Source: Ruminococcus sp.
Lineage (GTDB): Bacteria > Bacillota > Clostridia > Oscillospirales > Ruminococcaceae
Assembly (NCBI GenBank): GCA_021202895.1
Contig: JAJQCE010000029.1
Coordinates: forward strand, 9,664-73,663
Reading direction: 5' to 3'
Length of the DNA stretch: 64,000 bases
The position numbers and the translations under genes are program-made. The notes under the pieces were generated by a model. It made no database searches. It worked only from the letters and a program-made list of their open reading frames with translations, and had not been told where the DNA came from. This document shows, piece by piece, positions 30,306 through 57,439 of this stretch; position 1 is the first letter of the stretch; the number at the start of each line of letters is the position of its first letter.

Positions 30306-30306
30306 T

Positions 30307-31275: not shown

Positions 31276-32749
31276 TATTGTTCTTCCTTTTGATTAGAAA
31301 TATAGTATTTTCTATGCTTTCCACGGATGAACTTTTTGAAATTGATATGTTTTTTACTTTTCTTTTCTCAAGCTCATTTTGAGTAGGCTTCCCAATACAA
31401 ATTGCATATGAATCGTCATTTACTTTACCACCCATTTCAAAGAAAGCTCTAACTCCAGCAGTGCTTGCAAAAATATAATATTTGCAGTTTTGGGGAGGAT
31501 TTAGCTGCAAAGCCTTTGTTTCATATACTTTTATGTCTTCATAGCACATATTACTATTGTCCAAAATTTTGGTCAGATCGTCCGAACCATTTTTGGCTCT
31601 TGCAATTAGTATTTTTTCACTTTTATCAAATCTTTCGCATAACATCTGAGCAAGCTTTTTTGATGTAGCAACGTCAGGTATGAAATCCGTAAATATTCCA
31701 TGCTTCTCAATTGCTCTAGCAGTACTTTTACCAACAGCCGCAAGCTTAATATTGCTAAGTCTGCGCAAATCTATGCACTCTTTTACAAGTGCCTCAAAGA
31801 ATGCTTCGACTCCGCTGGCGCTTGTAAAGGCAGCACATCTAAAGCTCTCTATATTCTGCAAAGCTGCTTTTAAACTGGGATTATCTGCTTTCTTAATAAT
31901 TTCAAGGCACGGCAGAGAAAGAACATTTGCTCCGTCATTTTCAAGTAGCTTTGACATCCTATTTACTATGTTTTGACTTCCCGTAACGCACACGCTTACT
32001 CCGCTTAGTTTCTTATTTAATTTTGTAGTCAGTTCAAGCTCGGCAGTCTTTCCGACAACGAAAACTGCGGGAGGCTCGAGTTCCTCTTCTGAAACCACCC
32101 TTGCAATATCACAAAGAGGTGCCCTAACAACCTTTTGTCTTGATGTCGCACCATTTGAAATTACAGCAGACGGTGTAGCTTTGTCCACTCCATTTAAAAT
32201 AAGATTGTCCGCAATTTGCATTATTTTTTTTAGTCCCATCATAAATACAAGTGTTCCGTCACTGCTTGCAAGCCGTGAAAAATCATCTGGAAAATCATTT
32301 CGCATAGTATTTGCTGTAATGACCTCGAAGGATCTGCTCACATCTCTGTGTGTAACAGGAATTCCCGCAAGCTCAGCAGCGGCAATTGCCGATGAAATTC
32401 CAGGCACTATCTCAAAATCTATGTTAGCTTGCTTTAGCGCAATCGCTTCCTCTCCGCCACGTCCAAAAACAAACGGATCTCCACCCTTAAGACGCACTAC
32501 ATTCTTGCCTTTCATGGCATTTTTTATTATCAAGCTGTTAATCTCTTCCTGAGTAGAACTGTACTTTCCAGCACGTTTGCCTACAGAAAATTTTTCGGCT
32601 TTTTTAGCAAAAGACAAAAGACGAATATCAATTAATGCATCGTAAATTACCACATCACATTCGCCCAAAATCTGCATTCCTCTTACAGTTATAAGGTCAT
32701 AATCACCACAGCCTGCGCCTACAAGTGAAACTCTTCCCATTTGACTCAT
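31262..32749 (-). CDS. cobA: Uroporphyrinogen-III C-methyltransferase / synthase fusion (CobA-HemD)
   Basis: [30 protein letters not shown]; C-terminal FTSASGV and AVGKSTA HemD-like domain. Confidence 0.92.
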
Positions 32750-33609
32750 AGCTGTCTCACCAGCCTTTCAATAAGCTTATATCGATTTTCCAACAAATCC
32801 TCTCCAAAGGCTCTATTAAAGCCGTCAGATGTTATCCTGACAGTTATTTTTTGCTCATCTGCTACAGAGTAAACGCCAATTGGCATAGAACAATCTGCAT
32901 CAAGCAGAGATAAAAGATACCTTTCTGTGTCAAAGCTAATATGAGTTTTGGCATTATCAATTTTCTTTAGCAACTCACAGACTTTGCTGTCTTTTCTAGC
33001 TTGAATCGCAATTATTCCTTGACAGGGTGCAGGTAAAAATTCATCTGGACTAAATCTTTTTATTTTTAATCCATCACGCTTGCTAAAACCTAAACGTTCC
33101 AACCCAGCTGCTGCAAGCATTATCGCATCAAATTCACCTTCACGCAGCTTTTGTATACGTGTGTCAACATTCCCTCTGATATCACCAAAGGATGCGAGCG
33201 GATAAAAGCTTAAAAGCTCTCGTATTCTGCGCAAGGAGCCTGTGCCAACTGAAAATAAATCATCTGCTGCTGGCTCAAACTCCTCAAGCGTCACAAGCGC
33301 ATCCCGACAATCACCTCTAGGAAGAACAGCGCAAATATCTGTTCCATCAGCAAGCTTAAGCGGCAAATCCTTTGCACTGTGAATGGCTATATCAGCATTT
33401 TCGCTAAGAAGTGCTTCTTCCACATTTCTAACAAAGATTCCTTGAGTATTAAAATTTGAAAGAGACGTTTTTTGATCAATATCCCCTGGCGATTTTATAG
33501 TCTTAATCTCAAAGTTCAAGTCCAAAAAAAAGGACTTTAAAGCATCTATAACGATTTCACACTGTTTAAGCGAGAGTTTAGATCCTCTTGCTACAATTGT
33601 TATTTTCAT
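32746..33609 (-). CDS. hemC: Hydroxymethylbilane synthase
   Basis: RGSKLS, GD, HSAKDLP, GTGSLRR, RGNVDTR, LAAAGLERLG, PAPCQG. Confidence 0.95.
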   Translation of the reverse strand: MKITIVARGSKLSLKQCEIVIDALKSFFLDLNFEIKTIKSPGDIDQKTSLSNFNTQGIFVRNVEEALLSENADIAIHSAKDLPLKLADGTDICAVLPRGDCRDALVTLEEFEPAADDLFSVGTGSLRRIRELLSFYPLASFGDIRGNVDTRIQKLREGEFDAIMLAAAGLERLGFSKRDGLKIKRFSPDEFLPAPCQGIIAIQARKDSKVCELLKKIDNAKTHISFDTERYLLSLLDADCSMPIGVYSVADEQKITVRITSDGFNRAFGEDLLENRYKLIERLVRQL

Positions 33610-34216
33610 TTTTTCCTTCCTCAAGCAGCTTTAAAACTTTTTCTTTCGCTTTTGATTTTTTCTCATTCATACATATCTCAAAAATAAGCGATATAATGTG
33701 ATTTTTTGTTTTTGTATCTGAATATATTTCTTGTAAGTCTTTGCGATACTCTCCCAAAATTTCTACAGCGAAAGACAAATTATCGGTCAAAACATCATCA
33801 ATTTTTTCTCTTACAAATGATGAAACAAATGGACTTTTCCCATTTGTAGTTACCGCTGCAGTTATATCTCCGTTTTTTGATATAGCGGGAAAAATAAAGC
33901 TGCATTTTTCTTTATCGTCAACGGTATTTATAAGAATATTTTCGTCCTGACAAAGTCTGAAAATATACTCATTTAATTGCTCATCATCGGTTGCAGCAAT
34001 AACGCAAAAAGCATTTTTAATATCCTTGTCAGAAAACTCTCGTTTATGAACAGTAACGTCTAGTTTTCCAAATTCTTCACATACATCCTTAGCGACAATT
34101 TTAATTTTTGCACCAAATTCCATAAGCTTTTGAGCCTTTCTGTAGGCCACCTTTCCGCCGCCTACAACTAAAATCTCTTTGTCACATACATCTATAAAAA
34201 ACGGAAAATAGCTCAT
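33578..34216 (-). CDS. Precorrin-2 dehydrogenase / sirohydrochlorin ferrochelatase (SirC/Met8/CysG N-terminal type)
   Basis: YFPFFID, LVVGGGKVAYRK, IAATDD, NTVD...FIFP. Confidence 0.9.
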   Translation of the reverse strand: MSYFPFFIDVCDKEILVVGGGKVAYRKAQKLMEFGAKIKIVAKDVCEEFGKLDVTVHKREFSDKDIKNAFCVIAATDDEQLNEYIFRLCQDENILINTVDDKEKCSFIFPAISKNGDITAAVTTNGKSPFVSSFVREKIDDVLTDNLSFAVEILGEYRKDLQEIYSDTKTKNHIISLIFEICMNEKKSKAKEKVLKLLEEGKNENNNCSKRI

Positions 34217-35346
34217 TTGTTTTGCTCCTCTAAAAGTTTTGATAAGGCTGTCAGAACTGCGTCAAACTGCGAGAATTCAAGACTTGACTTTAACGTGATA
34301 ATTAGTTTCCTTGCATCTATCTGCCTCTCACAAATTTGATTTAAAGTCGGCTGAAAACTATGATAAGCAAGTTCCTTTTCCAATTCATTAGTCTTAAGAT
34401 GAATTATTTCCTTTGCGGACAAAGCGATTTTTTCTTTTCGTTTGTTGTTTTGCTCCGCCATATTTTTAAAGTCATCAATGGTAAGAAGCTTCACTCCTTC
34501 GATTGTTTTTACATGCGAATCGATGTCGGGCGGCACGGCTAAATCTATAAAAAGCCTTGACTTTTCCTCTTTAATTGCATTATCTATCTCATTGTAATTT
34601 AGCGTGTAATGTGGTGCGTTAGTTGCACTTATAACGCAATCCATTTTGTCAATCAGCTTGTATCTGTCCGAAAAATCGTACAGCTTTACTCCCAGCTCTT
34701 TTGCAAGCTCTATATCCCTATTTCTGCTTCTCGTAGTAGCATAAGCTGTTACATTTTTATGTGCAATTAGATTTTTTAGAGTAGAAAGTCCAATCTTTCC
34801 GGTTGCACCGATCACAAGCGCATTAACAGCTGTATTTGTGAATTTTGCAGCAGCATTTGCCGCAAGTGTTGCTATAGAAACTGGGATAGTCGAAAGAGAA
34901 GTGCTTGTCTTTATTTTCTTGGCACAGGCAAATGCCGTTTGAAAAATCATGTTAAACTGTGAGGATACACAGCCACATTCGTTTGCGTTTTCGTAAGCCT
35001 CTTTAAGCTGCCGCAATATTTCATCCTCGCCTATCACCATCGAATCAAGACCAGCTGCAAGAGAAAATAAATGCTCTATCGCCTGGTGTCCACAAAATCG
35101 CATTACATACGGCCCAAGCTCATTTTCTTCAAAGTTCCCTATCTTAGAAAGAACGTGCGATATTTCTTCCCAATATTCTCCTTCAAAATAAATCTCAGTG
35201 CGATTGCAGGTACAAAGCATTACACATTCATTAGTGAAACTTGATTTTATTTTTTCGATAAGTTTGACTTGCTCACTCTTGCTCAACGCAAGCTGACTTC
35301 TAATTTTCTGTGGAGCAAGCTTATAGTTTATACTAGTGCAGTTCAT
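34213..35346 (-). CDS. hemA: Glutamyl-tRNA reductase
   Basis: LCTCNRTEIY, GLDSMVIGEDEILRQLK, IGATGKIG, DLAVPPDI. Confidence 0.93.
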   Translation of the reverse strand: MNCTSINYKLAPQKIRSQLALSKSEQVKLIEKIKSSFTNECVMLCTCNRTEIYFEGEYWEEISHVLSKIGNFEENELGPYVMRFCGHQAIEHLFSLAAGLDSMVIGEDEILRQLKEAYENANECGCVSSQFNMIFQTAFACAKKIKTSTSLSTIPVSIATLAANAAAKFTNTAVNALVIGATGKIGLSTLKNLIAHKNVTAYATTRSRNRDIELAKELGVKLYDFSDRYKLIDKMDCVISATNAPHYTLNYNEIDNAIKEEKSRLFIDLAVPPDIDSHVKTIEGVKLLTIDDFKNMAEQNNKRKEKIALSAKEIIHLKTNELEKELAYHSFQPTLNQICERQIDARKLIITLKSSLEFSQFDAVLTALSKLLEEQNK

Positions 35347-35379
35347 TTATTTCATCCTTGCCTTATACAAAATTTATTT

Positions 35380-35417
35380 CCTACTAAAATTATAGCACTT
35401 TATTTTTCGTTTGTCAA
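35380..35417 (-). promoter_or_regulatory. sigmaA promoter of the hem/siroheme operon with Rrf2-type box
   Basis: TTGACA (35412-35417)-17-TATAAT (35389-35394); CCTAC-TAAAATT-ATAGC at 35380-35396. Confidence 0.75.
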
Positions 35418-35460
35418 TATAAAAGCAGTCCGACACATTTAAAACATCAACTGCGAAGGG

Positions 35461-35898
35461 TTATGCTTTTGTCGCAACCTTTTTTACCTCATGCACTAAT
35501 GTATCAACCTGTTGAGCGTTATTAAACACGTTTAGAGAAAAACGGTACTGTACCTTGTTCGAGAGCATCAAGCGTTTGGTGGGCAAGTGTGGCGCAGTGC
35601 AGATAAAATCAAAACCATCCGAAAACGATATATTCAAAAGCTCCGCCGTATTGCTTAATCCCTTTTACAGCCATTTTGAGTGCCAAGGTAGAGTTTGAAG
35701 TAAAAATTGTATTTTCAGTCAATGCTCCATACATCTCAGCTGCGGACTCACGCACGTTAAATACCTATCCAGCAGTCATAACAGAAAGAGCATGTCCACC
35801 CTTTCTAAGGATTACCGCCATATTTTGTTATAGCTTGATTTACTGCAGCACGAACAGATGCAGAGGAATGCTATAGTCGAATTGTCAAAGTTAATCAA
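35461..35898 (-). pseudogene. Heavily deleted cysteine desulfurase-family (class V aminotransferase) relic
   Basis: RBS + TTG LINFDNST; SVRAAVNQAITKYGGNP; GGHALSVMTAG*VFNVRESAAEMYG..ENTIFTSNST.AL.MAVKG; FDFICTAPH; LEQGTVP; NVFNNAQQVDTLVHEVKKV; about 440 bp, several frameshifts and stops. Confidence 0.75.
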
Positions 35899-35984
35899 TA
35901 CCTTTCACCTCTTTTTTTACAACAAATGTGATTAATAAATACAATTATCTTTATTATAATATGAAAAAGAGGGAATTTAAGTTA

Positions 35985-36031
35985 GAAAAACGACTGCCGC
36001 ATTTTTCTTTTACAATGCAGCAATCGTTTTC
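35985..36031 (-). terminator. Probable terminator of the ASST operon
   Basis: Imperfect inverted repeat GAAAAACGA..GCATT / AATGC..TCGTTTTC. Confidence 0.5.
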
Positions 36032-36049
36032 TATGTTTAGAGACGGTTT

Positions 36050-37549
36050 TTAGTTATCCTCAAGATCACTCTTGTTTACGCTTGCAACGCAAAAATCAAT
36101 TCTTTCGTCCTTATCCTTGCTTGAATTGCCGCCGCCTGTCATACCAACATTCTTGTTGGGATCTATTCCATCGACTGCGGTAACCTCGCCAGTTCCCTCG
36201 CCCTTTGATGCTCCAGGAACTCTAAACGTCGAAACGTCTATAGGCTCAATCGATGTTTCAACAGGCTTTTCAAGCTGAGGAATCCACTCGTATGGAACAC
36301 GGTATGCACGATAAACCATGTTGTTTCTAACCTTGCCGCCTATTTTGTTGAAATAAGGATTGATATACTCCCACACAATTTCATGCTCAGGTGTGACCTC
36401 AATAAGACGACCGTCCGACCCTTCGGTGATTAGCGTGTTGCCGTTAGGAAGACGCTGCGCTGCACTTATGTACGAGCTGTAGAACTTTGAAGCGTCACTA
36501 AACAAGAAATGTCCAGCCTCTAAGGGAGTGTACTGCCATGTGATTTCAAGCGTCACAGGATTAAACTGCAGCACTCTCGAGTAGTCACGGTGAGCGTTGT
36601 TTACGCCCGTTGCAGATGCAGGATTAGGAACGCCGTAGCCTCCCTCTCCGCCGTTGTCGAATACTAACAGGTCGCCTTCCCCGGGTAAGCCCTTAGGTAT
36701 CATGTGAAGGTGATGCTGACCAATTATCCATCCAAGCTTTCTTGTAGCCTCGTTTTCGTTAAAATCAGGACCTAAACGCCATACTATCTTACCTGTTTCA
36801 CGGTCAATAATTGCTAAGATATTTGAATTTCTAGCATCAAAGATGATATTATTAGGATTAAATCTCTCGTCACCCGCATCATACCACTTGTTTTCACCAA
36901 GTGTAGCAAAATTGTTTATGTGCATCCAATCTCCGCCCGCATCACCGTGAACTCCTGGATTGCGGTAGAGTGTGTTCTTTGCAGCTTCGTCAAAGCCAAG
37001 CTCGTCAAAGTGATCGCTTGCTTTCCAACTCCAAAGGATGTTGCCCTCCCAGTCAACCTCAATAATCTTGTCGTCAATAAGACGCTTATCTGAGATGTTG
37101 TGGTTGTAGACATTTTCATGAGTTAGAATCAACGTCTTTCCGCTGTCTATTTTAGGCTCGCCGCCTGGATAATAGTATCCTACGGTATTACCCTCACGCT
37201 GAAAATCGTGATGCTGTCTTGCCATATACTGTGGCTCTTCACCAGGATCCGCTACAAGCTCGGTTTTATCAAACTTCCAGACGATGTGTCCATCCCAGTC
37301 AACCTGAACTAAGTCAAGCTGGTCTTGATAGCCTGCCTTTGCAGTACGTCTGCCAGTAGAGCCAAAAACGTATCCGCCAGGGAGAATCTTGTTCGGAAAA
37401 CCTCCCAAGCCTGCCCAAAGCTTAACCTCGTTGCCATTCATGTCTACAAGCAGTGCACCCTTTGTAGATGGAAAAATCGTGTAACCACTGTATGTTTTGT
37501 CTTTGTTAAAAATTGTTGTCCCCGTAGGGAATACGCTAGGATAGCCCAT
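36050..37549 (-). CDS. Aryl-sulfate sulfotransferase family protein (ASST-1), cytoplasmic, with C-terminal Cys tail
   Basis: Beta-propeller-type repeats (EVDWEGNILWSW, TGKIVWRLG), QHHD, DWMHIN, DARN, GQHH, VFDNG, SSAQRLPNGNTLITEG-type motif; no signal peptide. Confidence 0.85.
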   Translation of the reverse strand: MGYPSVFPTGTTIFNKDKTYSGYTIFPSTKGALLVDMNGNEVKLWAGLGGFPNKILPGGYVFGSTGRRTAKAGYQDQLDLVQVDWDGHIVWKFDKTELVADPGEEPQYMARQHHDFQREGNTVGYYYPGGEPKIDSGKTLILTHENVYNHNISDKRLIDDKIIEVDWEGNILWSWKASDHFDELGFDEAAKNTLYRNPGVHGDAGGDWMHINNFATLGENKWYDAGDERFNPNNIIFDARNSNILAIIDRETGKIVWRLGPDFNENEATRKLGWIIGQHHLHMIPKGLPGEGDLLVFDNGGEGGYGVPNPASATGVNNAHRDYSRVLQFNPVTLEITWQYTPLEAGHFLFSDASKFYSSYISAAQRLPNGNTLITEGSDGRLIEVTPEHEIVWEYINPYFNKIGGKVRNNMVYRAYRVPYEWIPQLEKPVETSIEPIDVSTFRVPGASKGEGTGEVTAVDGIDPNKNVGMTGGGNSSKDKDERIDFCVASVNKSDLEDN

Positions 37550-37550
37550 G

Positions 37551-38933
37551 TTACTTTACCTCCGTTACTTCGCCCTCACCAATGACACTCACTGTGCCGG
37601 GCACTCTAAATGTTTCAATATCGACTGGTTTAATGTCAACCTCTTCAGGTCTTGAAAGCTGCGGAACCCACTCATAAGGAACTCTGTAAGCTCTGAAGAG
37701 AAAGTTGGTCTTTTTTGTTTTATCTGAAAAATGCGTTTCAAAATAGGGATTTATGTATTCCCATACTATTTCATGCTCTGCTGTAACCTCTAACACTCTT
37801 CCATCTGAACCCTCAGTAATAAGAGTGTTGCCGTTTGGAAGCCGCTGTGCTGAGCTTACGTACGAGCTGAAAAATTTCGTTGGGTCTGTGAATGTGTTGA
37901 ATCCAGCCTCTTCAGGTGTATACTGCCAAGTTATATCAAGAGTTACGGGGTTAAACTGCAAAACCCTTGAATAGTTTCTCTGATAATGATTAATTCCCGT
38001 TTCAGAGTTTACCGTCGGCACACCATAGCCAGATGCTCCTCCATTATCGAAAACGAGAATGTCACCTTCGCCAGGCAGACCTTTTTGAATAAGGTGCAGA
38101 TGATGCTGTCCCATTATCTGTCCTAACTTCTTTAAAGCTTCGTTTTCGCTGAATTCAGGTCCCAATCTCCATACAACTTTACCTGTTTTCTTCTCAATAA
38201 TACCAAGTATATTTGCCTGTCTTGCATCAAAAAGAATATTCTCAGGATTAAAGCGTTCATCGCCGTTATCATACCACTTGTTCTCACCAAGAATTGAAAT
38301 GTTATTAAACGTAAGCCAGTCGTGCCTTCCGCTTCCTCTTCCAGGCGTACGATAAATAGTATTCTTTGCTGCCTCATCAAAGCCAAGCTCGTCAAAGTGT
38401 TCCGACGCTTTCCAGCTCCATACAATATTACCCTGCCAATCAACTTCAATTATCTTTTCGTCATTGATTGTGTGTGGTGAAATTTTAGGATCATTTGTGC
38501 GTTCGTGGGTAATAATGATTGTGTTCTCGCCCTCCGTTTTAGGAAGACTGTTCGGTGAAAAATACCCTAACGGTAAGCTTTCTCTCTGCCAATCATGCGA
38601 TTGCTTTGCAACATAAACCTCACCATCATCCGTTTGGATTTTTGTGTTTTTGTCAAACCTCCAAACTACATTTCCGTTCCAATCCACCTGCAAAAGGTCG
38701 GCACGCTCAAGAAATTCAAGCTTATCTCTGTACTTATTTGATGATGTCACAAGATAACCGCCAGGAAGAATTCTGTCAGGAAAGCCAAGTGTTCCTGTCC
38801 ATGTTTTAACTTCTCTTCCATTCATATCGATAAGCTGTGCGCCTTTTGCACTGTGAAAAATTGTATAACCGCTGTATGCCTTACTTTTATTATAAAGCGT
38901 CACACCAGTCGGGTAAACTGTTGGATAGCCCAT
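37551..38933 (-). CDS. Aryl-sulfate sulfotransferase family protein (ASST-2), cytoplasmic paralogue
   Basis: Colinear with ASST-1 (e.g. SEHFDELGFDEAAKN, RVLQFNPVTL, QRLPNGNTLITEGSDGR); DWLTFN in place of DWMHIN; no Cys. Confidence 0.83.
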   Translation of the reverse strand: MGYPTVYPTGVTLYNKSKAYSGYTIFHSAKGAQLIDMNGREVKTWTGTLGFPDRILPGGYLVTSSNKYRDKLEFLERADLLQVDWNGNVVWRFDKNTKIQTDDGEVYVAKQSHDWQRESLPLGYFSPNSLPKTEGENTIIITHERTNDPKISPHTINDEKIIEVDWQGNIVWSWKASEHFDELGFDEAAKNTIYRTPGRGSGRHDWLTFNNISILGENKWYDNGDERFNPENILFDARQANILGIIEKKTGKVVWRLGPEFSENEALKKLGQIMGQHHLHLIQKGLPGEGDILVFDNGGASGYGVPTVNSETGINHYQRNYSRVLQFNPVTLDITWQYTPEEAGFNTFTDPTKFFSSYVSSAQRLPNGNTLITEGSDGRVLEVTAEHEIVWEYINPYFETHFSDKTKKTNFLFRAYRVPYEWVPQLSRPEEVDIKPVDIETFRVPGTVSVIGEGEVTEVK

Positions 38934-38951
38934 AAATAAGCCCCTTTTCTT

Positions 38952-39482
38952 TTAAAATGTTATTTTAATATCTTCGACTCTGTCTGAAAATACCTTTTGT
39001 GCCGACACAATGCCGTTATTGCCTAGATTTCTAACAAGTATAAGGCTGCCAATTTCGATAGCTTCATACGACACAAGCGGAAGTATTCCATTGTCAAGTA
39101 ATATCTCCTTTGTAGCACTGTCATAACCCTTTGCCAATATAGCTGCACTTCCTGAAGCTATAAGAAAAGACGCTGTATCATGGGTTAAGTCTGTAATTTT
39201 GTGATCTACGCTTATAATTCCCGAAAGTACTGTGTTTCTAATTCTAAACCCGTCAATGGTTCTTTTAAGAAAATCAATCCTTTCTCTAAGGAAAGATAGA
39301 TTTACAATCGGGCAGCTGTCGGTTTGTGCCGCAAGCTCACCAAGCTTGTAAGGCTTTGCCTTTTGCTCGAACTCTTCTCTCTCCTCAGCCGTTTTAGGCA
39401 GCTTGTCAGATATGACATAAAGCGATGCATCTGTAGAAATATCACGTCTGTTATAGGAGAGCTCTGCATATTTGTATTCCAA
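38952..39482 (-). CDS. Hypothetical protein; C-terminal half resembles an aconitase/LeuD swivel domain
   Basis: TTG start after GGAGG; GSAAILAKGY...LLDNGILPL resembles G..AVIA.SF.RI...N..N.G.LPL. Confidence 0.55.
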   Translation of the reverse strand: MEYKYAELSYNRRDISTDASLYVISDKLPKTAEEREEFEQKAKPYKLGELAAQTDSCPIVNLSFLRERIDFLKRTIDGFRIRNTVLSGIISVDHKITDLTHDTASFLIASGSAAILAKGYDSATKEILLDNGILPLVSYEAIEIGSLILVRNLGNNGIVSAQKVFSDRVEDIKITF

Positions 39483-39502
39483 AATATAACCTCCTTGTAT
39501 GC

Positions 39503-40549
39503 TTATGATAGCTCTACCATAATCTTGTCGCTGTCCTCACCAAATGCTAGTACAGCTGCCGAGGTGTCTATGAATTGACGTACATCATACTCAGTATCAT
39601 ATTTGCCGTTTTCATATGCCCATGCGGCAACATCCTCAAGCTTTTGCGCACCCTCTTCAGTGAAGCCTAGGTTGAATTGCAGATTATTCCAGTTGGACTG
39701 GAAATCATCCTCTTCTATACCAAATTTGCTTGCAATATCAGGCGTCACCTCATCAAGATGCTCGGTTATGTACTCAACACTCTCTTCAAGCGCAACAAGG
39801 TAATCGCCGAGAAGCTCGGTATTATCATCAAGAAAATCTGTTGTGGTCATAAGATAGCTTCTTGTTGCTATGCCAATTTCATCGGATGTCGCTACAAGAA
39901 CCATTCCGTACTCCTCATAGCGTTCAGCTGTTGCTCCGCTTGCTATAACTGCTCCAACCTCTCCTTTACTAACAAGCGAAAGGGATGACGACACGTCTGT
40001 TGAGTTTATATTTTCAACCTTATCCGGATCTAAGCCAACATAAGTTAGCGCCAGCCAGTTTTGATATTCTGAAACTGTACCTATATTCGTAATTATTCCG
40101 GGGCTGTCATAGAGTCCCTCAAGATTATCTGCATATTCCTCGGCTACGTAAAGTCCTCCAGTGGTATCTCTGCCAGTGCGGCCGCCTGTAAGCTCTGAGA
40201 AAGTAACCAGGTTTGTGTCATCCAGTGTATTTCCTATGCGGTTTACAAGTGCAAAATCAGCTAAAAGACCTGTATCTGCCGTGCCGTTTTGAACAGCATC
40301 CATTGTGTTTATACTGGCAGCGTACTCCGCAGTAGTAAGCTCTATTCCATACTTTTCAAAGATACCCTGCTCACTGCCTATGTATGTGGCATACTGATCC
40401 GCCTGACCTGTCATGATAGCTACGCGAAGCGTTGTAAGCTCGGTTCCATCCTCTGCTGTTGAAGTGTCGTCAGAATCACCGCATCCGACAAATGCCGTAA
40501 CTGAAAGTGACGATGCTACTAAAAACGCTAATATTTTCTTTATTTTCAT
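39503..40549 (-). CDS. ABC transporter substrate-binding lipoprotein, SsuA/TauA-like
   Basis: Lipobox FVGC, LRVAIM, IGSEQGIFEKYGIELT, family-typical size and position next to an SsuC-type permease. Confidence 0.8.
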   Translation of the reverse strand: MKIKKILAFLVASSLSVTAFVGCGDSDDTSTAEDGTELTTLRVAIMTGQADQYATYIGSEQGIFEKYGIELTTAEYAASINTMDAVQNGTADTGLLADFALVNRIGNTLDDTNLVTFSELTGGRTGRDTTGGLYVAEEYADNLEGLYDSPGIITNIGTVSEYQNWLALTYVGLDPDKVENINSTDVSSSLSLVSKGEVGAVIASGATAERYEEYGMVLVATSDEIGIATRSYLMTTTDFLDDNTELLGDYLVALEESVEYITEHLDEVTPDIASKFGIEEDDFQSNWNNLQFNLGFTEEGAQKLEDVAAWAYENGKYDTEYDVRQFIDTSAAVLAFGEDSDKIMVELS

Positions 40550-40565
40550 TGTAATCAACTCCTAA

Positions 40566-41360
40566 TTATTTAAGTCCGTAATGACCAAGTTTCTTTCTTC
40601 CTATAAACTGTAAAAGTCTGTCTGCTATAAATCCCAGTAGTGCAAGCGTTACTATTCCTGCAAATGCCCAGCTTGTTCTGTAGTAAAGCTTCGAGCTTTG
40701 GATTAGATAGCCAAGTCCATCGCTTCCGACAAGCATTTCTGCCGCTATAACGGTAAGTATTGATGAACTAAGTCCTAAGCGTATTCCTGTGAATATATTT
40801 GCCACCGCTGAGGGAAGAATTACCGTGAAGAAGACTCTTGCCTTCTTAGCTCCCATACAAGAAGCTGCCTCAACAAGCGACTGATCTGTAGATACAACAC
40901 CAGCTATAGTGTTTACAAAAATTGCAAAGAACGACGCATAGAATATAAGTGCAACTTTAGACTCTTCTCCTACGCCAAACCACATCAGAAAAAGTGTGGT
41001 AAGTGCGATTGCAGGAACGAATCTAAAAAAGCTTAAAATCGGCTCTACCAGGTATCTCACAGGCTTGAAGCTTCCGACTAAAAGTCCAAGCGGTACGCCA
41101 AAAACTACTGCTAGTGCCCAGCCCTTTGCAACTCTCGAGATACTTGCTACAAAATCTGCCCAGAGAGTGCCATCCTGAACTAGAATTATAAGACTGTCGA
41201 TGGTTTCCTTAGGCGAAGGCAGGAAATAGTCGTCATACGCAAGCGAGCCTAACCCCCAAACGACCAGAATTATCGCCCATGAAATTACTCCGCATTTAAA
41301 AATTCTCTGTCCTATATTTTCTGAGGATCTGCTCTTCTGTTTTTTTTCTTCTTTTGCCAT
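40566..41360 (-). CDS. ABC transporter permease, SsuC/TauC-like
   Basis: LPSP, SISRV..GW, FRFVPAIAL, GVGEESK, EAASCMGA, IAAEMLVGSDGLG. Confidence 0.9.
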   Translation of the reverse strand: MAKEEKKQKSRSSENIGQRIFKCGVISWAIILVVWGLGSLAYDDYFLPSPKETIDSLIILVQDGTLWADFVASISRVAKGWALAVVFGVPLGLLVGSFKPVRYLVEPILSFFRFVPAIALTTLFLMWFGVGEESKVALIFYASFFAIFVNTIAGVVSTDQSLVEAASCMGAKKARVFFTVILPSAVANIFTGIRLGLSSSILTVIAAEMLVGSDGLGYLIQSSKLYYRTSWAFAGIVTLALLGFIADRLLQFIGRKKLGHYGLK

Positions 41361-41373
41361 AACGCATTCCTCC

Positions 41374-42441
41374 TTAAATGTAGTAAATTGTGCTGTCATC
41401 GATAAAGCTGTTTGATACAACCTCGGTTTTGTCACCATCTATCGTGTACAGCTTTTTGATAAGCACCTTGACTTCGTCGCCCTTCTTAAGCCTTGTGGCG
41501 TTAAGGTCGTATCTTCCCGTGACAGACATGCTGTCTATGTTTACTTTGACCTCAAATGCGTTCCCTCTAAAGAACACATCCTCTACTATGCCATTCTCCA
41601 TAGAGCTTTCGTATTGATGATGCCCATTGTCCGTAAACTTGTTTATCTCAATAAACTCAGGACGAATTACCGCCGAAGCTTTGCTGTCCGAACCAGAAAA
41701 GCCCTTTAATCTGCCATAATCGGTGATTATCGCCGATTGTCCGATAAACTGAGCGACAAATGGTGTTTTCGGGTTAAGATAAATCTCAGCGGGATTTCCA
41801 ACCTGTTCGACCTTACCAAGGTTTGTTATGACAATTTCATCCGCCACCTCGATAGCCTCATCTTGATCGTGGGTTACAAAGATGCTTGTAATTCCGATTT
41901 TATCAATCGTCTCTCTAAGCCATGTTCTTAGCTCTTTTCTTACCTTTGCATCAATCGCCGCAAACGGTTCGTCCAAAAGAAGAAGCTCAGGCTCGGGAGC
42001 TAAGGCTCTTGCTAGTGCAATTCTCTGACGCTGACCGCCGCTAAGCTGCTCGGGATAACGTTTTTCAAGTCCCGGAAGACCAACAAGATCGAGCAACTCG
42101 GCAACACGATTTCTAATTGTTTCTTTATCCTTTTTTTGAACCTTTAGACCGTAAGCTATGTTATTGTACACATTCATATAAGGAAACAGCGCATAGTTTT
42201 GAAATACAAAGCCTATTCCTCTCTCGCTTGAAGGAAGATCGTTGACGACCTTGCCGCCGATTGAAATATCTCCGCTGTCCTGATGTTCAAGTCCCGCTAT
42301 CATTCTAAGGATAGTTGTTTTGCCGCTTCCTGATGGTCCCAGCAAGCCGATTAATTTTCCCTTCTCGATGCCAAAGGTAACGTCACTTGATGCCTTGCAA
42401 TCGCCAAATGTCTTGTTTACATTGTTTAACTCAATATACAT
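41374..42441 (-). CDS. cysA: ABC ATPase of the CysA (sulfate/thiosulfate) type
   Basis: GPSGSGKT, ERGIGFVFQNYALF, LSGGQRQR, LLLDEPFAAIDAKVRKELRTWLR, C-terminal TOBE-like region. Confidence 0.85.
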   Translation of the reverse strand: MYIELNNVNKTFGDCKASSDVTFGIEKGKLIGLLGPSGSGKTTILRMIAGLEHQDSGDISIGGKVVNDLPSSERGIGFVFQNYALFPYMNVYNNIAYGLKVQKKDKETIRNRVAELLDLVGLPGLEKRYPEQLSGGQRQRIALARALAPEPELLLLDEPFAAIDAKVRKELRTWLRETIDKIGITSIFVTHDQDEAIEVADEIVITNLGKVEQVGNPAEIYLNPKTPFVAQFIGQSAIITDYGRLKGFSGSDSKASAVIRPEFIEINKFTDNGHHQYESSMENGIVEDVFFRGNAFEVKVNIDSMSVTGRYDLNATRLKKGDEVKVLIKKLYTIDGDKTEVVSNSFIDDSTIYYI

Positions 42442-42564
42442 AATAACCAACTCCGAATTATTTTACTGTTGTTAGTTGTTTCAAATCTGATCTTAAGTCA
42501 ACATCGCTTGCTTTTAATAAAGATCTGTACCATAAAGTTTGACCCCCTTTTAATTCATACCTTT

Positions 42565-42621
42565 TCGATATGATTAGTATGTTTATAATTATAAACCCAT
42601 TTTTCCGATATGTCAATAGGG
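42565..42621 (-). promoter_or_regulatory. sigmaA consensus promoter of the cysA-ssuCA-ASST operon with two Rrf2-type boxes
   Basis: TTGACA (42611-42616)-17-TATAAT (42588-42593); boxes at 42605-42621 and 42565-42581. Confidence 0.8.
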
Positions 42622-42707
42622 TTTTTGAAAATTTGTGATAACTCACAAATAAAAAAGAATATATCGCAAAATTTTTAGACAGAATAACCCAAAATAACAA
42701 TTAGCTA

Positions 42708-42763
42708 TTGACAAATCAACTGAAATAATATATAATAAGTATAAATCATATTAATCGAATATG
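42708..42763 (+). promoter_or_regulatory. sigmaA consensus promoter of the thioredoxin gene with palindromic box
   Basis: TTGACA (42708-42713)-17-TATAAT (42731-42736); CATAT-TAATCGA-ATATG at 42747-42763. Confidence 0.78.
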
Positions 42764-42789
42764 AAAAGTATAGTTAGGAGATGAAAAGC

Positions 42790-43104
42790 ATGATTACTGA
42801 GCTTACAACCAGCACATTTGACGAAATAACCTCAACCGACAAACCTGTGGTGATAGAATTTTACTCGCCGACCTGTGTTCACTGCAAGAGAATGGAGCCA
42901 GGACTTAACGAGGTTGCCGACGAGCAAGAAAACGACGCAGTTATTACCAGATGTGACATCACAACCTCGCCTGAGCTTGCGCAGCGCTATGACATCACTG
43001 CCGTTCCGACAACGCTCTTTATAAAAAACGGTGAAATTAAGGACAAGCTTGTGGGATTTACACATAAGCTGATAATTTCCCAGGGTATTGAAAAGCTAAA
43101 GTGA
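42790..43104 (+). CDS. Thioredoxin family protein (CVHC)
   Basis: EFYSPTCVHCKRM, cis-Pro VPT, GEIKDKLVG; start 42790 or 42781. Confidence 0.9.
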   Translation: MITELTTSTFDEITSTDKPVVIEFYSPTCVHCKRMEPGLNEVADEQENDAVITRCDITTSPELAQRYDITAVPTTLFIKNGEIKDKLVGFTHKLIISQGIEKLK

Positions 43105-43116
43105 GCAAAATTTAAT

Positions 43117-43148
43117 GGGAACCGAAATTCAAATCGGTTCCCTCTTTT
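43117..43148. terminator. Bidirectional terminator between trx and trxB
   Basis: GGGAACCGA/TCGGTTCCC 9-bp stem plus T run. Confidence 0.75.
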
Positions 43149-43158
43149 TGTATAGTAT

Positions 43159-44058
43159 TTAAAGACTTCTAAGATAATTCTCAGCGCTTGTTACGGCATT
43201 TGCTCCGTCAGCGGCTGCGGTTATCACCTGTCTAAGGGGTGTGGTTCTCACATCTCCCGCAGCAAACAAGCCCTTGGCATCGGTAGCTCCGTCCTCACCT
43301 GCAATGATATATCCGAAGCTGTCAAGTGAACAAACTCCTTTTAAAAGCTCGGTGTTCGGCAGACTTCCAAGTGCGCAGAAAACACCGTCTATCTTTAGCG
43401 TGTCAATAGAGCCGTTTCGGTTTAACACGAGCTCTTCAGCTTTGTCGCCTCCGTTTACCTTAGTCACAGTAGTGTTTAGTATAAACTCAATGTTTTCAAC
43501 AGCATTCACCTGTGCTTGTAAGCTTTTGTTTGCCCTAAATTCATCTCTTCTGTGGATTAGATAGACCTTCTTAGCAATCTTTGATAGGTAAGCTGCATCT
43601 CCAAGCGCAGTATCTCCGCCACCTATGACGGCTACAATCTTGTTTTGATAGAAAGCTCCGTCACATACCGCACAGTAGGATACACACTGTTTTTCACTCC
43701 CCTCAACGCCAAGTCTGCGGTAGGATGTTCCCGCAGCGTAGATAATAGCCTTAGCTTCAAGTACCCTTCCGTCTGAAAAGGTTACCGCCCAATAGTCACT
43801 TTCCTTTGCTATTGCTTTAGCCTCGCCGTCATAGAACTCAGTTCCCAAAGCTAAAGCATGCTCACGAAAACCCTCGCCTAAATCATATCCTGATACTCCG
43901 TAAAGCCCAGGATAGTTTTCTACACGCTCACTTACCGAAATCTGTCCCGTACCCATATAGTCTTTTTCGACCACCACGGCGTTTAGCATAGCGCGCTTAG
44001 CGTAAATTGCAGCCGTAAGTCCAGCAGGTCCGCTGCCTATTATAATTATGTCATACAT
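43159..44058 (-). CDS. trxB: Thioredoxin-disulfide reductase
   Basis: GSGPAGLTAA, VSYCAVCDG, GGGDTA, HRRDEFRA, FAAGDV. Confidence 0.93.
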   Translation of the reverse strand: MYDIIIIGSGPAGLTAAIYAKRAMLNAVVVEKDYMGTGQISVSERVENYPGLYGVSGYDLGEGFREHALALGTEFYDGEAKAIAKESDYWAVTFSDGRVLEAKAIIYAAGTSYRRLGVEGSEKQCVSYCAVCDGAFYQNKIVAVIGGGDTALGDAAYLSKIAKKVYLIHRRDEFRANKSLQAQVNAVENIEFILNTTVTKVNGGDKAEELVLNRNGSIDTLKIDGVFCALGSLPNTELLKGVCSLDSFGYIIAGEDGATDAKGLFAAGDVRTTPLRQVITAAADGANAVTSAENYLRSL

Positions 44059-44070
44059 AACAATTCCTCC

Positions 44071-44523
44071 TCAAATATAGTACATAGGTTCGCTTGCATT
44101 ATTTTCAAGCTCCTTCTCATAACGCTCGGCAAGATCTGCCACCGTAACCGACATAGCGCAGTCCGACATATACCTTTCTATTTTGTTCCACAAAAGCTCA
44201 TTTATCACGTCAGAGAAACCATTGTTTTCGTTTCCGATCTCGGGAACATCGTTGTTTAAAAGCGACGATTCAAGAGCGTTTATCACTTCATTAAGCGTAA
44301 TATCCTCTGCCCTTTTAGAGAGAATATACCCGCCTCCTGAGCCTTTTTGTCCCTTAATTAGATGTGAATGGCGAAGTGACGAGAGTATCTGCTCGAGGTA
44401 CTTTTCAGAAATACCCTGCCTTCCTGAAATGCTGATAACAGTGACCGTTTTTCCATTCCGTGCATTGATTGCAATGTCAGTAATTGCCAAAATTCCACAC
44501 TCAACCTTTGTTGAAATTTTCAT
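44071..44523 (-). CDS. Rrf2 family transcriptional regulator (CymR-like, no IscR Cys triad)
   Basis: MKISTK, ISEKYLEQIL..L, KGSGGGYIL, ITLNEVINALE, LW. Confidence 0.92.
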   Translation of the reverse strand: MKISTKVECGILAITDIAINARNGKTVTVISISGRQGISEKYLEQILSSLRHSHLIKGQKGSGGGYILSKRAEDITLNEVINALESSLLNNDVPEIGNENNGFSDVINELLWNKIERYMSDCAMSVTVADLAERYEKELENNASEPMYYI

Positions 44524-44545
44524 GTGTGCCTCCTTTCACTCAATT

Positions 44546-44590
44546 CCTATCTGCTTAATATAGTATAACTGATTTTTTTGAGATTGTCAA
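44546..44590 (-). promoter_or_regulatory. sigmaA promoter of rrf2-trxB with autoregulatory box
   Basis: TTGACA (44585-44590)-17-TATACT (44562-44567); box CCTAT-CTGCTTA-ATATA at 44546-44562 flanked by AATT. Confidence 0.72.
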
Positions 44591-44683
44591 CCCCCCTACA
44601 GCCTTATGGCAGCCTAATAAATTTAACAAAAAATCATAAATTTATCGGCGAATTTTTGTGCATTTCGTAGAATTCATTGTTTT

Positions 44684-44716
44684 CCTATTGACTTTGTAGG
44701 AAATTCAGTGTATAAT
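44684..44716 (+). promoter_or_regulatory. sigmaA promoter of the metY(pseudo)-sulfite reductase-sulfur carrier operon with box over -35
   Basis: TTGACT (44688-44693)-17-TATAAT (44711-44716); TTTCCTAT-TGACTTT-GTAGGAAA. Confidence 0.78.
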
Positions 44717-44779: not shown

Positions 44780-45896
44780 CGGACTTTAATACCGCACTAC
44801 TGCACAAGTCTTTTTTTGGAGAAAAACAGACTGGAGCTACGACGAACCTATCTGCCAAACTGACTAGTTTGCACACAAATCCGCACAATGGCTAGAGAAA
44901 ATATTTAATAACAAGGCTAATGGATATGCCTACACACGTATTGTAAATCCTAACTGTGTCCTCATTTGAAAACCGCATTGCAGCTATTGAGGGCGGAATT
45001 TCTGTGATTGCTTGCTCGTCAGGTTCGGTTGCAGTGGCAATGTCAATACTAAACATCGTTTTAGCTGTAGATGAAATTATTTCCAGCAGTGCGCTCTATG
45101 GCGGCACTCTCAACCTTTTCGGTGGTCTTAGGTCTTTCGGAATTGAAGTAAAGTATGTAAACGAGGCAATTCCTGATCTTATCAAGCCGCTTATCATCGA
45201 CAGCACCACAGCTACACCTTACATATTATAACCGATAGAGCTTGGAGATGATATTGCAGTTCATTCCTCATCTAAGTAGATAAACGGCGGCGGAAATTCA
45301 GTCTGCGGAGTTATCGTAGACAGCGGAAGGTACAAGTGGTTCTTTGATAAACACCCATCACTTTCAAAATATAGAAAATTTGGTGGTTTTGCCTACACCG
45401 CAAGCCTAAAGAACGGCATCTGGAGAGATGTAGGATGCTGCCCTGCTCCGATGACTGGCTTTTATGAACAGCGTAGGGCTTGAAACGCTCAGTCTTAGAA
45501 TGCAGCAATGCTGCGACAATGCGCCAAGGCTTGCCAAACACCTAGAGAGCAAAGGACTTTCGGTAAACTATCCTGCTCCTAAGTCCTCTCCCTACTATAT
45601 AATATCATACGAAGCTAGCTTAACGGCAATGGCGGAGCTGTTTTTACGTTTCGCATGGAAAGCAAGGAGAAGGCATTTAAGCTTTTAGGCTCGCTTGAAT
45701 ACTCGATAATTGCATCCAACATGGCGATGTAAGAACGCTTGTTATTCACCCTGCGAGTACGCTCTTTGCGCACAGTGATGAAACGGAAAAGTAAACGTCA
45801 GGAGTTTATGAGGATACTATTAGGGTGAGTGCGGGTATTGAAGATATTGAAGAGTTAATAGATGACTTTAATAGAGCATTTGCACTTTATAACTAA
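44780..45896 (+). pseudogene. metY: O-acetylhomoserine sulfhydrylase (MetY/CysD family) pseudogene
   Basis: Fragments FNTALLH, YAYTRIVNP, FENRIAAIEGG..IACSSG, LYGGT, LIIDSTTATP, HSSSK*INGGGNS (stop right after PLP Lys), GLETLSLRMQQCCDNA, IRVSAGIEDIEELIDDF; internal deletion and several frameshifts; 5' boundary approximate. Confidence 0.88.
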
Positions 45897-45910
45897 CAGG
45901 AGGAATTAAG

Positions 45911-46774
45911 ATGGCAGTAGATTATGCAACGCTCAAAAAGGGCGGATTTATGAGACAAAAGCAGAAGAACAACTTTTCACTAAGACTAAGAGTTGTAGGA
46001 GGAAACCTTACAGCTAAGCAGCTTGCAAAGATTGCCCAGGTTTCTGAAAAGTACGGTGACGGTCATGTACATCTCACCTCACGTCAGAGTGTAGAGATAC
46101 CGTTTATCAAGCTTGACGACATAGATGAGGTAAAAGCTGCTCTTGCCGAGGGAGATGTTTCACCTGGAGTCTGCGGACCTAGGGTGCGTACCATTACCGC
46201 CTGTCAGGGAGAGGCAATTTGCCCGAGCGGATGTATCGACACCTATAAGCTTGCTAAAGAGCTTGACGAACGCTACTTTGCAAGAGAGCTTCCGCACAAG
46301 TTTAAGTTTGGCATTACGGGATGTCAGAACAACTGCCTAAAGGCTGAGGAAAACGATCTCGGCATAAAAGGAGCGCTCAAGGTAAAGTGGAAGAAGGACA
46401 GCTGTATTCAATGCGGAGTCTGTCTTAAGGCTTGCCGCACGCAGGCTCTAAGCCTTGAGGATGGCAGGATAGATCTCGAGGAGGGCAAGTGCAATTTCTG
46501 TGGAAGATGCGTAAAGGCTTGTCCTGCGGATGCGTGGGATGTTACAAGCGGCTACATAGTTTCATTCGGAGGAATTTTTGGCAACAATATAAGCAAGGGC
46601 GAGGCTATCATTCCGTTTATAGACGACCACGACAAGCTCATGAGCGTTTGCGATGCGGCGATTAGCTTCTTTAATGAGAACGCACTTGCAGGCGAGAGAT
46701 TTAAGTTTACCATAGACAGGGTAGGCAAGGACAAATTTGAGCAAAGGATTTTGGAGGCGTATAACAATGGCTGA
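45911..46774 (+). CDS. Siroheme/[4Fe-4S] sulfite reductase-like protein (AsrC/Dsr fold, with 2x[4Fe-4S] ferredoxin insert)
   Basis: LRLRVVGG, HLTSRQSVEI, TACQGEAIC and GCQNNC siroheme-cluster Cys, CIQCGVC/CNFCGRC ferredoxin motifs, GERF. Confidence 0.88.
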   Translation: MAVDYATLKKGGFMRQKQKNNFSLRLRVVGGNLTAKQLAKIAQVSEKYGDGHVHLTSRQSVEIPFIKLDDIDEVKAALAEGDVSPGVCGPRVRTITACQGEAICPSGCIDTYKLAKELDERYFARELPHKFKFGITGCQNNCLKAEENDLGIKGALKVKWKKDSCIQCGVCLKACRTQALSLEDGRIDLEEGKCNFCGRCVKACPADAWDVTSGYIVSFGGIFGNNISKGEAIIPFIDDHDKLMSVCDAAISFFNENALAGERFKFTIDRVGKDKFEQRILEAYNNG

Positions 46775-47012
46775 GTTTAACATTGACGACACGGTGGACA
46801 TCACCGACGTGGTTTGCCCGACCACATTTGTAAAGGCTAAGGTAGCTCTTGAGGAACTAGAAGAGGGCGAGGTGCTTTCAATAAAGATGAATGACGGTGA
46901 GCCTGTACAGAACGTGCCAAGAAGCATAAAGGAAGAAGGACATCGGATTTTAAAGCTCATCGATAACGAGGACGGCACATATAATCTTATTGTCAGAAAG
47001 GTCGGTGATTAA
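46767..47012 (+). CDS. TusA/SirA-family sulfurtransferase
   Basis: VDITDVVCPTTFVKAKVALEELEEGEVL.I...G....NVPRS. Confidence 0.9.
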   Translation: MAEFNIDDTVDITDVVCPTTFVKAKVALEELEEGEVLSIKMNDGEPVQNVPRSIKEEGHRILKLIDNEDGTYNLIVRKVGD

Positions 47013-47327
47013 ATGGCTGTAAAGGTAAATGCGGACTGCTTCGAAAGCGAAGTCTTGTCGGCTGAAGAGGTTGTGCTTGTTGACTTTTACTCCGATTCGT
47101 GCGTACCATGCAAGCGAATAGCTCCGCTGCTTTCGCAGATCGAGCAGGAGAACGAGAGCATAAAGCTTGCAAAGCTAAACATAAACTTTGACCAAGAGAC
47201 TGCCAAGGCTTACGGTGTGACTGCTGTTCCTACGCTGGTGCTTTTTAAAGGCGGAAAGGAAAAGGCTAGGCTTGTCGGCAGCGTAAAAAAGGAAACGATT
47301 GAGGAAGCAATAAATTCTATAGACTAA
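47013..47327 (+). CDS. Thioredoxin family protein (CVPC)
   Basis: VDFYSDSCVPCKRI, VPTL.LFKGG. Confidence 0.9.
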   Translation: MAVKVNADCFESEVLSAEEVVLVDFYSDSCVPCKRIAPLLSQIEQENESIKLAKLNINFDQETAKAYGVTAVPTLVLFKGGKEKARLVGSVKKETIEEAINSID

Positions 47328-47339
47328 GGAGAGATTGAT

Positions 47340-47546
47340 ATGAAAATCAAAGTTGCAGGAGTTAAGAAGGAAAAAGAAGAGGGTATTACCGTTGCAAAGC
47401 TTATCGAGGAAGAAAAGGTGGAAACACCTGAGTATGTAACTGTTACGGTAAACGATGAGTTTTTAAAGAGCGGCACATTTGAGCAGACTGTGCTTAAAGA
47501 TGGTGACGAGGTCGAGTTTCTCTACTTTATGGGAGGCGGCAGATAA
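47340..47546 (+). CDS. ThiS/HcyS-like sulfur carrier protein ending GGG-R
   Basis: 68 aa, VTVTVNDEF, LKDGDEVEFLYFMGGGR. Confidence 0.92.
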   Translation: MKIKVAGVKKEKEEGITVAKLIEEEKVETPEYVTVTVNDEFLKSGTFEQTVLKDGDEVEFLYFMGGGR

Positions 47547-48355
47547 TGGCTTTTACAAACGAACAGATAGAGCGTTACTCTCGCCACATCATACTAAAAG
47601 AGGTCGGCGCAAAGGGGCAAAAAAAGCTTTTAAATGGGAGCGTACTTATAATCGGAGCAGGGGGTCTCGGTGCACCTGCGGCGATGTACCTTGCGGCAGC
47701 GGGAATAGGAAGGATTGGAATTGCGGACGCTGACGAAGTGGATCTTTCTAACCTACAGCGTCAGATTATTCACGCTACCGAAGACGTAGGCAAACCAAAG
47801 GTCATCTCGGCTAAGGAAACGATAGAACGTATGAACCCTGATGTTAAGGTGGAAACCTACCAGACATTTGTAAGCAGTGAGAACATAATGGAGCTTATCA
47901 AGGACTATGACTTTATCATTGACGGCACGGACAACTTCCCTGCTAAATTTTTAATCAATGATGCCTGCGTCATGGCAAAGAAGCCTTTTTCACATGCGGG
48001 TATCATACGCTTTAAAGGACAGCTTATGACCTATGTTCCAGGACAGGGGCCGTGCTACAGATGCGTGTTTAAGAACCCTCCCCCAAAGGATGCGGTGCCT
48101 ACCTGCAAGCAGGCAGGAGTAATCGGTGCTATGGGCGGCGTTATCGGAAGTCTTCAGACTATGGAGGCGGTAAAGTACATCCTGGGAGTAGGAGATCTTT
48201 TGACAGGGTATCTGCTTACATACGATGCTCTGAAGATGGATTTTAGAAAGGTAAAGCTTCCGAGCAATACAAGCGAATGTGCGGTTTGCGGTGAACATCC
48301 CACGATAAACGAGCTTATCGACTACGAGCAGACGGAGTGTGACGGTGCGCTATGA
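47546..48355 (+). CDS. ThiF/MoeB/HesA family adenylyltransferase (HcyF-like)
   Basis: RYSRHI, IGAGGLG, D.D.VDLSNLQRQ, DGTDNF, CYRC and CAVC Zn sites. Confidence 0.93.
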   Translation: MAFTNEQIERYSRHIILKEVGAKGQKKLLNGSVLIIGAGGLGAPAAMYLAAAGIGRIGIADADEVDLSNLQRQIIHATEDVGKPKVISAKETIERMNPDVKVETYQTFVSSENIMELIKDYDFIIDGTDNFPAKFLINDACVMAKKPFSHAGIIRFKGQLMTYVPGQGPCYRCVFKNPPPKDAVPTCKQAGVIGAMGGVIGSLQTMEAVKYILGVGDLLTGYLLTYDALKMDFRKVKLPSNTSECAVCGEHPTINELIDYEQTECDGAL

Positions 48356-49297: not shown

Positions 49298-49543
49298 TTT
49301 AAAACTATGACGAGAGAAGCTGTTTTTGCAATAAAGCTTTCAGAGAGTGCTTCATATGCTGGAAGAAGCGCAGCTTTTAAAATTCGGATACCGCTCTTTG
49401 AGTTCGCCTAATCAGCGACGGCAAACCCCGTTACAGGTTATGTGCTTTTTAAGTACGCAAAGGCGCCTTTCGGCGTGAAATTGGGTGGAACCACGGCTTG
49501 AAATTTTGTCGTCCCTTAGACTTTAGTCTTTGGGACTTTTTGT
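49298..49543 (+). ncRNA. T-box riboswitch (Thr)
   Basis: Stem I GA/AGAGAG..GCTGG..AG pattern, candidate specifier ACC at 49390-49392, T-box AATTGGGTGGAACCACGG, terminator GTCCC...GGGACTTTTTG. Confidence 0.9.
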
Positions 49544-49565
49544 TTTCTCTGAAAGGATTTTTAGT

Positions 49566-57400: not shown

Positions 57401-57439
57401 ATATATCAATCATTTAATAAATGCCTATACAAAAATAAA

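Follow-up and report, generated by a model that had tools for sequence, protein, structure and literature searches.

CymR of Bacillus subtilis and Staphylococcus aureus is an Rrf2-family master repressor of cysteine metabolism that works with CysK. The C-terminal tail of S. aureus CymR (...GYMFYI) enters the active site of CysK and binds there with nanomolar affinity; the isoleucine at the end of the tail is conserved among CysK partners. For the clostridia, CAC2236/CAC2235 (rrf2-cysK type) of Clostridium acetobutylicum was proposed as the clostridial CymR, with regulons that are predicted only (PMC3828012). Here we analyzed a stretch of 64,000 nucleotides of Ruminococcus sp. (GCA_021202895.1, contig JAJQCE010000029.1:9,664-73,663), called the window, which carries an island of sulfur genes around a CymR-like Rrf2 regulator gene of 150 amino acids (rrf2; 44071..44523, minus strand; Pfam Rrf2). 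Coordinates are those of the window unless a contig is named, and the genome (G000) has 2.1 Mb. From the comparison of sequences, we consider it about 80% probable that the island Rrf2 is a cluster-less CymR-type repressor of a predicted sulfur regulon, acting through 27-bp boxes. A literature search found no description of such a regulon in Ruminococcus.

Footprinting across relatives gave wAwTTC[C/A]TAy-N7-rTA[G/T]GAAwTw, a 27-bp palindrome, as the full element. The relatives with orthologous islands were G003, G015, and G010, whose regulators showed 77%, 56%, and 49% identity to the island Rrf2, plus seven further species (loci L039-L045). Two boxes were kept in the rrf2/metY divergent region of all orthologous loci, so that the conserved element is the 27-bp palindrome, longer than the 17-bp operator of the original prediction. 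Boxes were kept at orthologous promoters where the flanking sequence diverged, and the changes from species to species preserved the palindrome. The element was scored with an independent position weight matrix (PWM) built from 36 sites of 8 other Ruminococcus species, with none from G000 or its nearest relative G003. The background expectation for intergenic hits of this PWM was taken from Markov-2 simulations.

A scan for sigma-A promoters, scored as consensus matches out of 12 positions and used to predict transcription starts, detected five near-consensus promoters in the island, each with 11-12 matching positions. All six 17-mers of the original prediction were present exactly where it placed them, each on or just after one of these promoters, as it had said. 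The operators at hemA (35380), trx (42747), rrf2 (44546), and metY (44684) stood; the site at 42565 was 9 bp off its true core, and the site at 42605 was unsupported.

The metY operator (44679..44705, core 44684-44700, CCTAT-TGACTTT-GTAGG) scored 21.5 bits (rank 4 in the genome). The metY promoter occupies 44688-44716 on the plus strand, and its -35 hexamer TTGACT sits within the operator spacer. This box was kept as AATTCCTAyAAAGTCAATAGGAA over the -35 hexamer in every orthologous locus examined. On the minus strand, the rrf2 promoter spans 44590..44562 with the -10 box at 44567..44562, and the rrf2-trxB operator (44541..44567, core 44546-44562, CCTAT-CTGCTTA-ATATA; 16.7 bits, rank 6) overlaps this -10 box and the predicted start of transcription, a position that implies autorepression. 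The rrf2 box was kept as ...AGATAGGAATTG after the -10 box in G003, G015, G010, and L039-L045. The trxB gene (thioredoxin reductase; 43159..44058, minus strand) lies only 12 nt 3' of rrf2, and the two were therefore read as co-transcribed.

The trx1 promoter (42708-42736, plus strand; -10 box 42731-42736) is directly followed by the trx1 operator (42742..42768, core 42747-42763, CATAT-TAATCGA-ATATG; 19.8 bits, rank 5), which covers about +1 to +25 from the predicted start. It was kept in G003 and G015, and G010 has the canonical CCTAT-N7-ATAGG form in the same place. The cysA promoter runs on the minus strand from 42616 to 42588 (-10 box 42593..42588). Its corrected operator (42551..42577, core CATAC-CTTTTCG-ATATG at 42556-42572; 22.8 bits, rank 3) lies downstream of the -10 box, at about +4 to +30 from the predicted start, and was kept with the palindrome preserved in G003, G015 (CATAT..ATATG), G010 (CATAC..GTATG), and G043.

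Two candidates near cysA were rejected. The 17-mer at 42565..42581 (TCGAT-ATGATTA-GTATG) is mis-registered and shares sequence with the right half of the true operator of cysA; it scored 3.9 bits (rank 463). The 17-mer at 42605..42621 (CCGAT-ATGTCAA-TAGGG), over the cysA -35 hexamer, scored −9.1 bits with a 7-bp spacer and fell outside the top 16,000; when the spacer was set to 6 bp, its half-sites added up to 9.6, a background value. It was kept only in the close relative G003, and in G015 and G010 just the TTGACA hexamer remains.

In the genome-wide scan, the top six sites of the independent PWM were those of a gshA-like operon, cysK, cysA, metY, trx1, and rrf2, in that order. Four island promoters were thus among the top six. 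Intergenic matches of at least 16.5 bits numbered 5, against 0.45 expected. A first, smaller PWM from G015 and G010 sites only gave a similar picture: its top five in the genome were the corrected cysA box (rank 1), the site on contig C4, trx1, metY, and rrf2, and at 18 bits or more it found 5 intergenic matches compared with 0.2 expected. Lesser PWM matches at hisZ, within rpoD, and at a small membrane open reading frame (ORF) on C31:199720 are likely or possible false positives.

The two best boxes lie outside the island. The gshA-like operon box at C4:38900 was the best in the genome (25.8 bits, rank 1) and covers the -35 hexamer. It precedes an operon (C4:38900-42308; L036 8901-12312) with a glutamate-cysteine-ligase-like gene, a class-II glutamine amidotransferase, a serine-hydrolase-like gene, and, last, a second Rrf2 gene (41859-42308), whose product is 57% identical to the island protein and scored 95.8 bits on the NCBIfam CymR model. 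The cysK box at C31:143317 (24.4 bits, rank 2) lies after the -10 box of a consensus promoter, and cysK itself scored 445.7 bits on TIGR01139, above the cut-off. Seven of ten relatives showed cysK boxes of 18-25 bits. The original prediction treated the island as one functional unit; the shared boxes agree with this, and the predicted regulon extends beyond the island to cysK and the gshA-like operon, which score highest.

Upstream of cysK (C31:142349-146834, L038) lie genes for a PatB C-S lyase, a cystathionine gamma-synthase/lyase-family protein (metB-like), and a LysR regulator. The LysR gene, which heads the metB-like/patB cluster, is preceded at a distance of 32 bp by a weaker box (15.6 bits by the first PWM), and a weak match of 12.1 bits was found before an iscS-like gene. 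A third, distant Rrf2 gene (C19:56212-56688) lies immediately 3' of rpoD; it contains a Cys-rich stretch, CLSDEKGCSRGADGACC, and is probably of the iron-sulfur (Fe-S) type.

The island Rrf2 scored 92.2 bits on Pfam PF02082 and 91 bits on TIGR00738, both above the cut-offs. Cys9 and Cys122 are its only cysteines, the IscR cluster ligands are absent, and the alignment of 13 homologues showed no conserved Cys in the 90-110 region. Among the same 13 homologues, the recognition-helix core KYLEQ was invariant. The protein ends in ...EPMYYI, of which Y148, Y149, and I150 were invariant and the preceding Met nearly so. The island regulator thus resembles CymR in a winged helix without Fe-S ligands, a tail of the form M-(F/Y)-Y-I, cysK and sulfur-uptake genes as predicted targets, and boxes that overlap promoters. 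A palindromic box of about 27 bp with a ATAGGAAT-type half-site, as in the Bacillus CymR consensus, may be a further likeness. Unlike CymR, the island regulator is apparently autoregulated and co-transcribed with trxB, and it has a paralogue in the same genome.

The clostridial rrf2-cysK type offers a second comparison. Clostridium liquoris, C. tetanomorphum, and C. mobile carry rrf2-cysK-iscS with homologues about 40% identical to the island protein; the same box was found before rrf2 in all three (about 22 bits), and C. liquoris and C. mobile have it before cysK as well (about 19 bits). Wherever the regulator gene occurred, these clostridial loci included, the box occurred with it. Unlike in this type, the G000 regulator is not adjacent to cysK and sits in a sulfite-reduction/siroheme/thioredoxin island. 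The best structural-sequence matches of the island Rrf2 were to IscR (Escherichia coli; Thermincola potens, PDB 4CIC), and the CC-N13-GG geometry of the Ruminococcus box resembles that of IscR type-2 sites. IscR has three Cys and one His for a [2Fe-2S] cluster and controls isc/suf, whereas here the ligands are absent, there is no iscSU linkage, and the top targets are sulfur-assimilation genes. The NCBIfam IscR model gave 83.5 bits, below its cut-off. The likeness to CymR/IscR-type Rrf2 boxes in the original prediction appears real, and the protein shows two hallmarks of CymR, the lack of cluster ligands and a tail of the CysK-docking type. Very probably, the island CymR-like Rrf2 binds at this palindrome. 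The MYYI C-terminus is also common to an iscU-adjacent Ruminococcus Rrf2 group and to the T. potens IscR of 4CIC, so that docking into CysK may be a common trait of IscR/CymR-like proteins in clostridia.

Several results weigh against this assignment. On the NCBIfam CymR equivalog model NF047409, the island protein scored 83.6 bits, below the cut-off of 195, and the closest solved structures were T. potens IscR (73 bits) and E. coli IscR (65 bits), with B. subtilis CymR at 49 bits. The full Bacillus CymR consensus, used as a pattern with at most 3 mismatches, matched only the hemA box, although its ATAGGAATT half-site agrees. The hemA box is itself weak in G000 (35375..35401, core 35380-35396, CCTAC-TAAAATT-ATAGC; 10.4 bits, rank 48). 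The C4 paralogue shares a near-identical recognition helix (ISEKYLEQ), a similar wing, and the MYYI tail with the island protein, and may share its boxes. Finally, the short consensus CCTAT-N7-ATAGG with at most 2 mismatches was not enriched window-wide (27 matches compared with 20.0 expected). The signal is local and became clear only with the extended 27-bp motif, and the case therefore rests on location and independent evidence.

The last of these counts, together with the failure of two of the six listed sites, would fit palindromes that arise by chance or as promoter-associated AT-rich sequence with no dedicated regulator. We regard this as very improbable, since the independent PWM set the sites clearly apart from other genomic sequence and the sites were kept, with palindrome-preserving changes, across species whose regulators are 49-63% identical.

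The paralogue raises a more serious question. The boxes may be read mainly or jointly by the C4 protein, with the island regulator redundant or specialised to a subset. The 57% identity, the common helix, wing, and tail, and the presence of the genome's best box over the -35 hexamer of the paralogue's own operon agree with such a role. On the other side, this subfamily has only one member in each of G003, G015, and G010, encoded divergently from metY, and that protein would serve the whole regulon there. These genomes, without a C4-type paralogue, keep the boxes of rrf2, metY, trx1, and cysA in all three and those of hem and cysK in two each. CATAT-type and CCTAT-type boxes coexist in such single-regulator genomes, and it is the island protein whose orthologues are conserved and linked to boxes. 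A main or joint role of the C4 paralogue is less likely than not, and the island Rrf2 remains our preferred reader of the boxes.

The siroheme operon deserves separate treatment because of its weak box. The operon (29046..35346, minus strand) was assigned by NCBIfam to hemA, sirC (precorrin-2 dehydrogenase), hemC, cobA/hemD, hemB, and hemL, and siroheme is the cofactor of sulfite reductase. The hemA promoter (35417..35389, from -35 start to -10 end, minus strand) overlaps the box. One half-site, TATTTCCTAC, is strong (10.2 bits), and the other, at −3.0 bits, has become part of the extended -10 box TGCTATAAT. The rrf2 box showed the same pattern, with one half merged with the -10 box. For any one promoter window of 60 positions, the chance of a match with 10.4 bits or more was about 0.006. 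In G003, the hemA promoter and box were kept while the flanks diverged, and the hem-operon box there reached 18.1 bits. G043 has a box of 12.2 bits directly after the hemA -10 box, and the hem operon of G044 carries a pair of them (21.6 and 21.5 bits). In G041 (21.1 bits), G042 (19.2 bits), and G015 (19.3 bits), the hem operon begins with a DUF3877 ORF and the box lies upstream of this ORF, and in G010 hemA lies directly behind rrf2 in one operon. No convincing box was found at the hem operons of G046 and G045. Regulon membership of the hem operon is well supported at the genus level by the boxes in other species. Within G000 itself, the comparison makes its membership plausible, though on weaker footing.

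The hem operon was always tied to the sulfur island or to a box, in varied layouts (loci L031, L035, L121, L125-L127). It is inverted in G003 relative to G000, and in G046 it lies behind cysA.

The box positions suggest how regulation could work. An Rrf2 dimer would bind the 27-bp palindrome, and the boxes lie over the -35 hexamer (metY, gshA-like), over the -10 box and predicted start (hemA, rrf2), or at about +1 to +30 (trx1, cysA, cysK). At these positions, binding would block RNA polymerase, a geometry typical of repression by occlusion. The claim of the original prediction that the local Rrf2 represses the divergently oriented sulfur operons, including that of siroheme, through one type of operator is supported on comparative evidence. 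A search with Rfam at gathering thresholds showed neither a riboswitch nor a T-box within the island, the sole T-box being at 57178-57402, so that control by RNA elements in these leaders is not indicated.

The signal is most likely the cysteine supply, sensed via CymR-CysK and O-acetylserine, by analogy with Bacillus and Staphylococcus. The MYYI C-terminus of the island Rrf2 would probably dock into the CysK active site as CymR does in those genera. On the same analogy, repression would be strong when cysteine is plentiful and O-acetylserine low, and would be relieved under sulfur limitation. The regulator might instead sense thiol or redox stress, much as S. aureus CymR does through its single Cys, whose oxidation is described in the literature as inactivating the protein. 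The joint rrf2-trxB operon, the box at trx1, the predicted control of two thioredoxins, and the conservation of Cys9 in the metY-linked group would suit this. However, close homologues that share the box have Tyr or Phe in place of Cys9, the predicted regulon is dominated by sulfur-assimilation genes and cysK, and the CysK-docking tail is invariant. Redox sensing in place of cysteine sensing is thus unlikely, although the two could coexist.

The regulon would join functions that are spread over differently oriented operons. Sulfur uptake and sulfate-ester handling would be represented by the cysA operon (36050..42450, minus strand; NCBIfam and Pfam), which encodes a sulfate-type ATPase of the ATP-binding cassette (ABC) family, a permease, an NMT1/SsuA-like binding protein, a 176-aa ORF, and two arylsulfotransferase (ASST) paralogues. 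Sulfite reduction and a thiocarboxylate relay of ThiS, MoeB, and JAMM type would come from the metY operon (44780..48777, plus strand; family matches). In this operon, a metY pseudogene comes first, followed by an AsrC-like sulfite reductase (45911-46774, plus strand; family matches), a TusA-like gene (46767-47012, plus strand), and a ThiS-like carrier that ends in GGGR (47340-47546, plus strand). Further genes are trx2, between the TusA-like and ThiS-like genes, a MoeB/ThiF-like E1, and a JAMM protease. The regulon would also include two thioredoxins (trx1, at 42781..43104 on the plus strand, gave 77 bits on TIGR01068), the thioredoxin reductase (trxB; 323 bits on TIGR01292, slightly below the 343-bit cut-off), the whole C5 pathway to siroheme, and the regulator itself. 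Outside the island, cysK and the operon of the glutamate-cysteine-ligase-like gene would belong to it.

Some further observations concern these operons. The metY gene (O-acetylhomoserine sulfhydrylase; 44780-45896) is a pseudogene in G000, with the start ATG AAC changed to ACG GAC, a deletion of about 40 codons, and several frameshifts and stops. Its promoter, operator, and downstream relay genes are all intact, and G003, G015, and G010 have an undamaged metY of about 410-420 aa. Between the convergent trx1 and trxB, a hairpin with a 9-bp stem and T-runs on both strands (43117-43142) looks like a bidirectional terminator, and the rrf2-trxB operon ends there. A box-like site of 14.4 bits, AATAACCTATTACTTTGGTATGCTTTT, was found in addition at 49679-49705, within an unassigned 141-aa ORF (49530-49955) between the JAMM gene and thrS.

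In motif, regulator type, and logic, the system is that of CymR regulons, with most of the defining traits of CymR, and it involves no new mechanism. Unlike in the CymR regulon, the hemA-hemL siroheme pathway, the thioredoxins, the arylsulfotransferases, and the ThiS/MoeB/JAMM relay are added here. The siroheme pathway, the thioredoxin system, the arylsulfotransferase operon, the relay, and the second paralogue are lineage-specific. A more far-reaching picture can be offered tentatively, and we hold it to be rather improbable as a whole. Two paralogous CymR-like repressors with a common recognition helix and CysK-docking tail might use one operator code in the same cell, with sulfur assimilation (uptake, sulfite reduction, siroheme, thioredoxins) set against the cysteine-consuming gshA-like operon as a cysteine supply-and-demand circuit. 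The complete C5 tetrapyrrole pathway might then be purely a siroheme branch under a sulfur regulator.

For Ruminococcus of the gut and rumen, the analysis provides a map of the predicted sulfur-assimilation regulon that can be put to the test. It would tie the synthesis of siroheme from glutamyl-tRNA, the thioredoxin system, and the thiocarboxylate relay to cysteine control, and it suggests that CymR/IscR-like proteins of clostridia generally have a tail of the CysK-docking type.

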